Shown here one piece after another: positions 19,198 to 19,990 of a DNA stretch of 42,657 bases. A program made the translations under genes and the position numbers. Positions within the stretch are counted from its first letter, which is position 1. Each line of letters starts with the position of its first letter. Origin of the DNA: Escherichia phage Flotzy; sequence record PP925827.1; one strand, 5' to 3'. The notes below the pieces were generated by a model that worked only from the letters and a program-made list of their open reading frames with translations, did no database searches and had not been told where the DNA came from.

Positions 19198-19218
19198 TTT
19201 TCTCGACAAACACTGAAA

Positions 19219-19241
19219 GCTGCCTCCGGGCGGCTTTTTTT
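19219..19241 (+). terminator. intrinsic terminator-like hairpin between M and L
   Basis: GCTGCC-tccg-GGCGGC hairpin followed by T7, then a G8 tract. Confidence 0.55.
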
Positions 19242-19252
19242 ATGGGGGGGGT

Positions 19253-19990
19253 ATGAGTTTTACGGCAGATATACAACAGCTTGAGCCCGGCAGCGTTATT
19301 CAGCTGATTGAGATCGACGGCACTGAATTCGGTATGGATCAGGTGCTGCGTTTTCATGCGCACAATATACAGGAAGAAGGGTGGGCAGCCTTCGCCGCGG
19401 AAAATCTTCCCGCCATTATCTGGCAGGGAAACCAGTACGATCCCCATCCCTACGAACTGAAGGGGATGGAGTTATCGAGTACAGGGTCCCAGCCAACGCC
19501 CACGCTGTCCGTCGGGAACGTCGGAAACTATGTCACGGCGCTGTGTCTTGAATATGACGATATGGTCAGGGCTAAGGTCAAAATCCATACCACGCTTTCG
19601 AAGTATCTCGATGCCGCCAACTGGAAAAACGGTAATCCAAGTGCCAGCCCGGCCGATGAGCGCGTACAGCTATTTTACGTCAATGCCAAAACCGCAGAGA
19701 CGCGGGTACAGGTTGATTTTGAGCTGTGTTCTCCTTTCGATATTCAGAGCCTGCAGCTGCCGACACGGCAGATTACTCCTGTCTGCACCTGGTGTATGCG
19801 GGGCTGGTACCGAAGCGGGACCGGATGCGATTACAACGGCACGAAATACTTTACCAAAGACGGTACGCCGACCGATGACCCGTCGAAAGACGTTTGTGGC
19901 GGCCGCCGGCAGGATTGTCAAGATCGTCACGGCCCGGACGCGCCGCTGCCGTTCGGCGGTTTTCCGGCTGCAAACCTGCAGGGGAAATAA
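19253..19990 (+). CDS. minor tail protein (lambda gpL-like)
   Basis: 245 aa with C-terminal Cys cluster (CTWC...C...C). Confidence 0.8.
   Translation: MSFTADIQQLEPGSVIQLIEIDGTEFGMDQVLRFHAHNIQEEGWAAFAAENLPAIIWQGNQYDPHPYELKGMELSSTGSQPTPTLSVGNVGNYVTALCLEYDDMVRAKVKIHTTLSKYLDAANWKNGNPSASPADERVQLFYVNAKTAETRVQVDFELCSPFDIQSLQLPTRQITPVCTWCMRGWYRSGTGCDYNGTKYFTKDGTPTDDPSKDVCGGRRQDCQDRHGPDAPLPFGGFPAANLQGK

Follow-up and report, generated by a model that had tools for sequence, protein, structure and literature searches.

The minor tail protein genes M and L of Escherichia phage Flotzy are separated by a spacer that appears to hold an ordinary intrinsic (Rho-independent) terminator followed by the ribosome-binding site of L, and the terminator is orthologous to a feature annotated as putative in phage phi80 and hence already known. 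Judging from the aligned relatives, this orphan terminator is conserved over the phi80-like tail modules in Enterobacteriaceae, Erwiniaceae, Yersiniaceae and Gilliamella, and the M–L junction is a moron slot, which is empty in the window (the whole stretch of 42,657 nt that was analysed, record PP925827.1). We consider it probable, with some reserve, that the terminator serves as an insulator, stopping unmodified polymerase while being read through by Q-modified polymerase in lytic growth.

All features of the junction lie on the + strand. Gene M (18859..19197; 112 aa; Pfam Phage_min_tail PF05939, E=1.2e-25), which is the ortholog of phi80 gene 17, ends with the stop codon TGA at 19195-19197, and gene L (19253..19990; 245 aa; Pfam Phage_tail_L PF05100, E=2.9e-67) begins with the ATG at 19253. 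Read directly from the sequence, the spacer of 55 nt and the start codon are TTTTCTCGACAAACACTGAAAGCTGCC-TCCG-GGCGGC-TTTTTTT-AT-GGGGGGGG-T-ATG, with CACTGAAAGCTGCC standing directly before the TCCG. The putative terminator stem-loop GCUGCC-UCCG-GGCGGC occupies 19219..19234, its arms being at 19219-19224 and 19229-19234 and its loop at 19225-19228. The stem has 6 bp (5 G-C pairs and one U·G pair) under a UCCG tetraloop, is extendable by A/U pairs to 19216-19237, and is abutted by a T7 (U7) tract at 19235..19241. The folding energy is -10.9 kcal/mol for the core and -15.7 kcal/mol with the A/U extension, and in the minimum-free-energy fold of the region (81 nt) the hairpin takes the central place, accompanied by weak long-range pairs only. 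The GC hairpin, T7 and G8 immediately before the L start, which the original prediction had placed inside the tail operon, are thus borne out by sequence and folding. The same prediction took this operon to be usually uninterrupted, which is right for lambda (M at 13100-13429, L from 13429) and N15 (M and L overlap by 4 nt) but wrong for the phi80-like group, where a spacer with a hairpin is the rule.

The GC-rich stem-loop, the U tract directly after it and the compensatory changes by which the structure is kept are those of an intrinsic terminator. Strong sites of hairpin plus T tail occur six times on the + strand of the window, versus 0.27 expected from first-order Markov simulations, and the M–L site is one of the six; a separate generic terminator scan, in which greedy A/T stem extension apparently consumes the T tail, overlooked 19219-19241. 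The promoter scan gave no sigma-70-like promoter between 18859 and 19253, and an Rfam search of 18800-19700 returned only a chance-level match (BjrC1505, E=0.81), i.e. no known RNA family. The marks of a regulated attenuator, a conserved competing antiterminator structure or an upstream leader peptide, are not seen, as the upstream part of the spacer is not conserved (see below), the minimum-free-energy fold shows weak long-range pairs only besides the terminator, and Rfam gives no match. A small RNA ending at the M–L terminator was rejected for the same Rfam result and because no promoter-like site lies in or just upstream of M. An antisense terminator was rejected as well, since TTTCAGTG, which comes after the hairpin on that strand, offers only 3 T, and the minus-strand scan gives no call. 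The likeness to another terminator, near 6073, that had been pointed out from the letters alone is real, only modestly beyond chance: the terminator AAACCGCC-UCCG-GGCGGUUU plus U tract at 6071..6096 (+) has a 12-nt core, GCCTCCGGGCGG, in common with the M–L hairpin (exact at 6076-6087 and 19222-19233), where 2 matches with at most one mismatch compare with 0.37 expected and 6 of 100 shuffles reach 2. The hairpin ACCGCC-TCCG-GGCGGT, as at 6071, also stands at the M–L junction itself in most of the related loci L084-L096.

Conservation was followed in 136 related loci in total, with 80 viral contigs whose L is 83-100% identical and 55 bacterial loci whose L is 46-99% identical, the latter drawn from one-genome-per-species assemblies. 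The M stop and the L start were located in each locus, a perfect stem followed by a T run was sought in the 75 nt before L, and a hairpin was called at dG <= -7 with at least 5 T just upstream of L. A hairpin with a T run stands just before L in 118 of the 122 spacer-bearing junctions, namely in 108 of the 111 loci with short spacers (41-74 nt) and in 10 of the 11 with enlarged ones (157-1679 nt), and in none of the 12 junctions with an ATGA overlap, a group that includes N15, Photorhabdus, Superficieibacter, Pseudescherichia and one Serratia locus. It is missing in four spacer-bearing relatives (L109, L124, L136 and L138, the last with a weak hairpin). Counted by distinct upstream regions, 75 of 79 are positive; random 75-nt windows taken from these loci score in 0.7% of cases and shuffled sequences in 0.04%. 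In all 120 hairpin-bearing junctions the T run has 6-9 nt, and alignment columns 21-24 are invariant T.

The stems themselves are diverse, their sequences having diverged to a near-random level with pairing kept, e.g. GCTGCC/GGCGGC, GCTGCC/GGCAGC, ACCGCC/GGCGGT and GGTCGC/GCGGCC, and further variants among the relatives are GGGCGC/GCGCCC, CCACC/GGTGG and CCCGC/GCGGG. When 40 distinct four-loop hairpins are aligned without gaps, both sides vary in six of the seven pairs; paired cells amount to 96.8% versus 32-65% in slid controls, a percentage that is inflated by the selection of the sequences as hairpins. Among lineage pairs with at least four differing stem positions, identity is 40-43% in the stem arms and 30%, close to the random level, over the 16 nt upstream of the stem, so that the 5' part of the spacer (19198..19218, +) counts as non-conserved. 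In the same pairs the T run plus ribosome-binding site is 66% identical, much like the neighbouring coding ends at 68-73%. In most lineages 11 nt separate the last T of the run from the L ATG. This pattern reads as that of a selected terminator structure and not of a decaying remnant, in agreement with the original prediction that the hairpin is of terminator type with a U tract. Part of the hairpin diversity could nevertheless come from replacement by new insertions instead of in-place compensatory evolution.

The junction has also repeatedly received cargo genes. Inserted ORFs, on either strand, lie between M and the hairpin in 10 of the 11 enlarged spacers, and they comprise a lipoprotein family of 113-122 aa (L081, L083, L102 and L106), a protein of 124 aa (L091), inserts of 1.2-1.7 kb in Rosenbergiella (L115 and L118) and minus-strand genes (L119, L127 and L145). 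A Pfam search of the relatives' cargo proteins gave no families, with one weak HEPN-like match below threshold, and a promoter-like site was found just upstream of the L081 cargo. The same terminator follows different cargo in L115 and L118, and again in L127 and L145, which suggests that the terminator belongs to the slot and not to a particular insert. These four loci also share the motif ATCCTGATATT(C/T)GATCAGT about 20 nt upstream of the M–L terminator; it forms an inverted repeat CTGAT..ATCAG directly before the terminator, while the cargo genes differ. The spacer of the window has its own terminator, and neither a cargo gene nor a promoter of its own was found in it. The junction is, moreover, a mosaic joint: M identity ranges over 48-74% at a constant L identity of about 80%, which indicates that a single L lineage has been combined here with several M alleles. 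One contig labelled as a Geobacteraceae MAG (L100, DAINBV010000046.1) carries an L gene that is 99% identical to that of this enterobacterial phage, for which mis-binning or contamination is probable. It is conceivable, and we raise it with little confidence, that the terminator plus ribosome-binding site is a selected, reusable docking site and not a chance relic of a moron, i.e. a fixed downstream boundary that lets diverse cargo be inserted and exchanged while expression of the essential tail-tip genes is spared, and that it could partially stop Q-modified polymerase. This suggestion, which may be drawn from the sequence comparison, goes back to the two cases of one terminator after differing cargo and to the compensatory changes in empty slots across bacterial families. 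The comparative picture of a recurrent cargo slot at a mosaic joint is a modest addition on phage mosaicism and follows established moron and lambdoid ideas.

A second slot of this kind is found between I and J. Both the window (21328-21938) and phi80 carry there the MorF lipoprotein moron and a bidirectional terminator, the latter located just before J at 21909..21938 of the window by the terminator scans and annotated in phi80 (FN582354), while LLS (L155, 15153-15210) and N15 (15307-15330) have an orphan terminator only. The M–L and I–J slots share the same design, in which a hairpin, a T run, a purine-rich ribosome-binding site and the ATG of the next gene follow one another. A promoter-like site at 21349-21377 of the window lies near the estimated place of the promoter annotated in phi80 FN582354, a position that was estimated without alignment.

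As a whole, the window represents a temperate siphophage of the phi80-like kind. Over 1 kb its tail module shares 96.5-97.9% identity with LLS, phi80, Eeyore, mEp043 and mEp213, and 37 complete E. coli genomes, Nissle 1917 among them, have this stretch in a prophage. Compared with the proteins of phi80, J is 96% and MorF 95% identical, the large terminase 25%, and the holin and lysozyme 31-43%. The genome thus looks like a mosaic in which the tail module, and not the whole genome, is common with phi80. The Q protein of phi80 has no match in positions 1-9000 of the window, and the Q-type late antiterminator gene of the window (991..1695, +) was recognised via Pfam instead (Phage_antiter_Q PF06323, E=1.2e-40). 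A tR'-like terminator lies downstream of it at 1789..1815 (+) in the terminator scan. If late transcription starts downstream of Q and continues across the cos region into the head and tail genes, as was assumed here, the strong + strand terminators at 1789, 3086, 6071, 19217 and 21915 would all lie on this transcript, four of them besides the M–L terminator; the sixth strong site, at 35792, is bidirectional and lies outside this set. The tR'-like terminator and the one at 3086-3105, just upstream of the holin, flank a gene for a DNA methylase (2029-3057, PF01555). Farther on, at 4562-6066 (+), the genes of a Ser/Thr protein kinase (PF00069, 2.6e-30) and of a phosphatase of the PP2C type (PF13672, 9e-13) form a pair at the end of the lysis region, just before the terminator at 6071 and the cos region, where they resemble late-operon cargo.

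It is known that a standard terminator consists of a hairpin followed directly by a U tract of 7-9 nt, and that Q-loaded polymerase is termination-deficient and passes termination sites (PMC9388147). The late operon of phi80 is expressed only when Q is supplied (PMC11364771), and morons, which are found in tail operons, bring along a promoter and a terminator that allow their expression while the prophage is repressed (PMC3594210). On these grounds we assume that unmodified RNA polymerase, whether it comes from the lysogen, from cargo promoters or from stray upstream initiation, would stop at the M–L terminator and leave L-K-I-J silent. During lytic growth, polymerase modified by Q at the late promoter would read through the M–L terminator and the other terminators of the same transcript. 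L would then be translated from its own Shine-Dalgarno region and not by coupling to M, because the M/L overlap, which provides the coupling in lambda and N15, is replaced by the spacer. The presence of the Q gene and of four other strong terminators on the presumed late transcript makes such an insulating role the most likely one. Its weakest link is the selection in empty slots, since no promoter that needs to be blocked was found upstream in this genome.

Attenuation, by which the original prediction would have the hairpin set the ratio of M to L, is another reading: Q-modified polymerase would sometimes stop here, so that the mRNA of L-K-I-J is lowered relative to that of the head and proximal tail genes and the protein ratios are set. 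In its favour, hairpin and U tract are under selection even in cargo-less genomes, and a dosage gradient could arise from a series of five strong terminators along the late transcript. However, the window encodes Q, and Q-loaded polymerase is deficient in termination at standard terminators (PMC9388147). The four similar terminators elsewhere on the presumed transcript make attenuation still less likely, and in relatives such as N15, lambda and L132 these proteins come from overlapping genes without a terminator. Both M and L are present in few copies at the tip of the lambda tail, so that a drop between the two would fit no obvious stoichiometric boundary. We therefore hold attenuation to be unlikely. 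If the terminator did act on Q-modified polymerase, this would bear on how late-gene dosage is set, and nothing found here demands such action.

The element could also work at the level of RNA, either as a barrier to 3' exonuclease that stabilises the upstream H-M mRNA once it has been processed or as a hairpin with a U-rich tract that insulates and aids independent translation of L (S1 or standby binding). The distance between the T run and the L ATG, fixed in most lineages, would suit this, as would the fact that the cassette always comes with an independent Shine-Dalgarno sequence while the hairpin-less junctions use ATGA coupling. Yet the tract of 6-9 U after the stem, kept in every hairpin-bearing junction, is unneeded for an exonuclease barrier and is a signature of intrinsic termination, and the same design stands after the MorF moron, where a terminator is expected; a function of this kind is thus quite doubtful. 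That the element is a neutral remnant of a lost moron, having no present function, would agree with the spacer of the window, which has neither cargo nor promoter, and with the insertions and losses at M–L among cargo-bearing relatives. It is improbable all the same: the covariation contradicts it, and many lineages without cargo, from different bacterial families, retain the structure next to spacer sequence that has become random. An insulating terminator accordingly remains the reading we prefer.

The G8 tract at 19244..19251 (+), which forms the Shine-Dalgarno region of L, occurs once in the window and is the longest G run there, and runs of G7 or longer are not enriched in the window (3 matches versus 6.1 expected). 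Where the window has GGGGGGGG, the usual form in relatives is GGGGGGAG, found in 8 of 8 aligned phage relatives and in 9 of 10 aligned E. coli prophage or phage sequences, so that G8 is one A-to-G substitution away from GGGGGGAG; HH107 has GGGGGTAA at this place. Among the 11 nt before the L ATG in the 120 hairpin-bearing junctions, GGGGGGAG is present 38 times, GGGGGTAA 13, GGGGTGAA 10, GGAGGGAG 7 and GGGTGAAA 6 times. G8 is present in three junctions (the window, L020 and L073) and the remaining ones hold many other purine-rich versions; by length, G7 is found once and most tracts are G6 or less, lengths that are reached via substitutions. Variants with an inserted or deleted G occur at two loci only, L019 (G5AG, one fewer) and L060 (G7AG, one more). 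The predicted energy of the duplex with the anti-Shine-Dalgarno sequence ranges from -7.4 to -11.8 kcal/mol over all tract variants, G8 being the strongest at -11.8 and the usual form giving -9.5. A purine-rich tract lies upstream of L in every spacer-bearing relative, and since all these versions pair well with the 3' end of 16S rRNA, the tract is best read as the Shine-Dalgarno sequence of L and G8 as a point variant of it.

The original prediction had gone further, proposing that the G tract varies by slippage and thereby alters initiation at L, i.e. that G8 is a switch of phase variation. In favour of such a switch are the length of G8, the longest G run of the window, and the difference of one G in L019 and L060. 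It is nevertheless extremely unlikely. G8 is derived from GGGGGGAG by substitution, and in most relatives the tract is interrupted (GGAGGGAG, GGGGGTAA, GGGTGAAA and others); a change of one G would shift a sliding, G-rich Shine-Dalgarno sequence by 1 nt, and binding is predicted to be strong for all variants. Moreover, the phage could not survive an OFF state, the tail-tip protein L being essential. Comparison of the tract among related genomes thus yields no pattern of length polymorphism such as a phase-variable tract would display, and the proposal stands unsupported. Length variation resides instead in the T run, which ranges from 6 T (CX21) through 7 (the window) and 8 (phi80) to as many as 9 in other loci, with 7 in 85 of the 120 hairpin-bearing junctions. 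The Nissle-derived assembly EcN_Sk (L012, NZ_CP172017.1) has T7 together with a frameshifted M, where about two dozen other Nissle-type assemblies have T8; its T7 is likely a homopolymer assembly error, and the case is a caution against inferring tract lengths from assemblies. A mini-ORF of four codons, ATG GGG GGG GTA TGA (19242..19256, +), whose stop overlaps the L start, is in frame in many relatives and is not conserved. It was rejected as a coupling device, because several lineages lack its upstream ATG or have ATT, ACG or TTG in its place, and the frame is broken in L019 and L060; it is incidental and probably non-functional. An annotation of the genome should name the feature an M–L intrinsic terminator followed by the ribosome-binding site of L, for which a special mechanism is not needed.

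Among known systems, the closest is phi80 itself, in which a putative rho-independent terminator is annotated at the orthologous place in two independent records (FN582354, 14016-14046; JX871397, 13996-14019), the 1-kb stretch being 97.7% identical to the window. The position between genes 17 (M) and 18 (L) is the same, and the stem and loop are identical; the differences are that phi80 has T8 and GGGGGGAG where the window has T7 and GGGGGGGG, and the element is putative in both. The morons of lambdoid late operons, such as HK97 gene 15 and phi80 MorF (PMC3594210), likewise place a terminator between tail genes followed by the next ribosome-binding site, and relatives of the window carry cargo just upstream of the M–L terminator; the window differs from them in having the terminator only, without cargo or promoter, and in that the hairpin covaries in many cargo-less lineages. 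A lone terminator at a tail-gene junction is also known between N15 genes 20 (I) and 21 (J) and in LLS, where phi80 and the window carry a moron, but it stands there at I–J and not at M–L. Furthermore, lambda tR' is like the M–L terminator a hairpin with a U tract in the transcript of a Q-modifiable polymerase, and the window has both Q and a tR'-like terminator; tR', however, is a promoter-proximal regulatory switch, while the M–L terminator, some 17 kb farther downstream, is not known to take part in regulation. With contingency loci, i.e. phase-variable homopolymeric tracts, the L tract has in common eight identical bases next to a start codon, and it differs from them in showing no pattern of length polymorphism, in being interrupted in most relatives and in preceding an essential gene.
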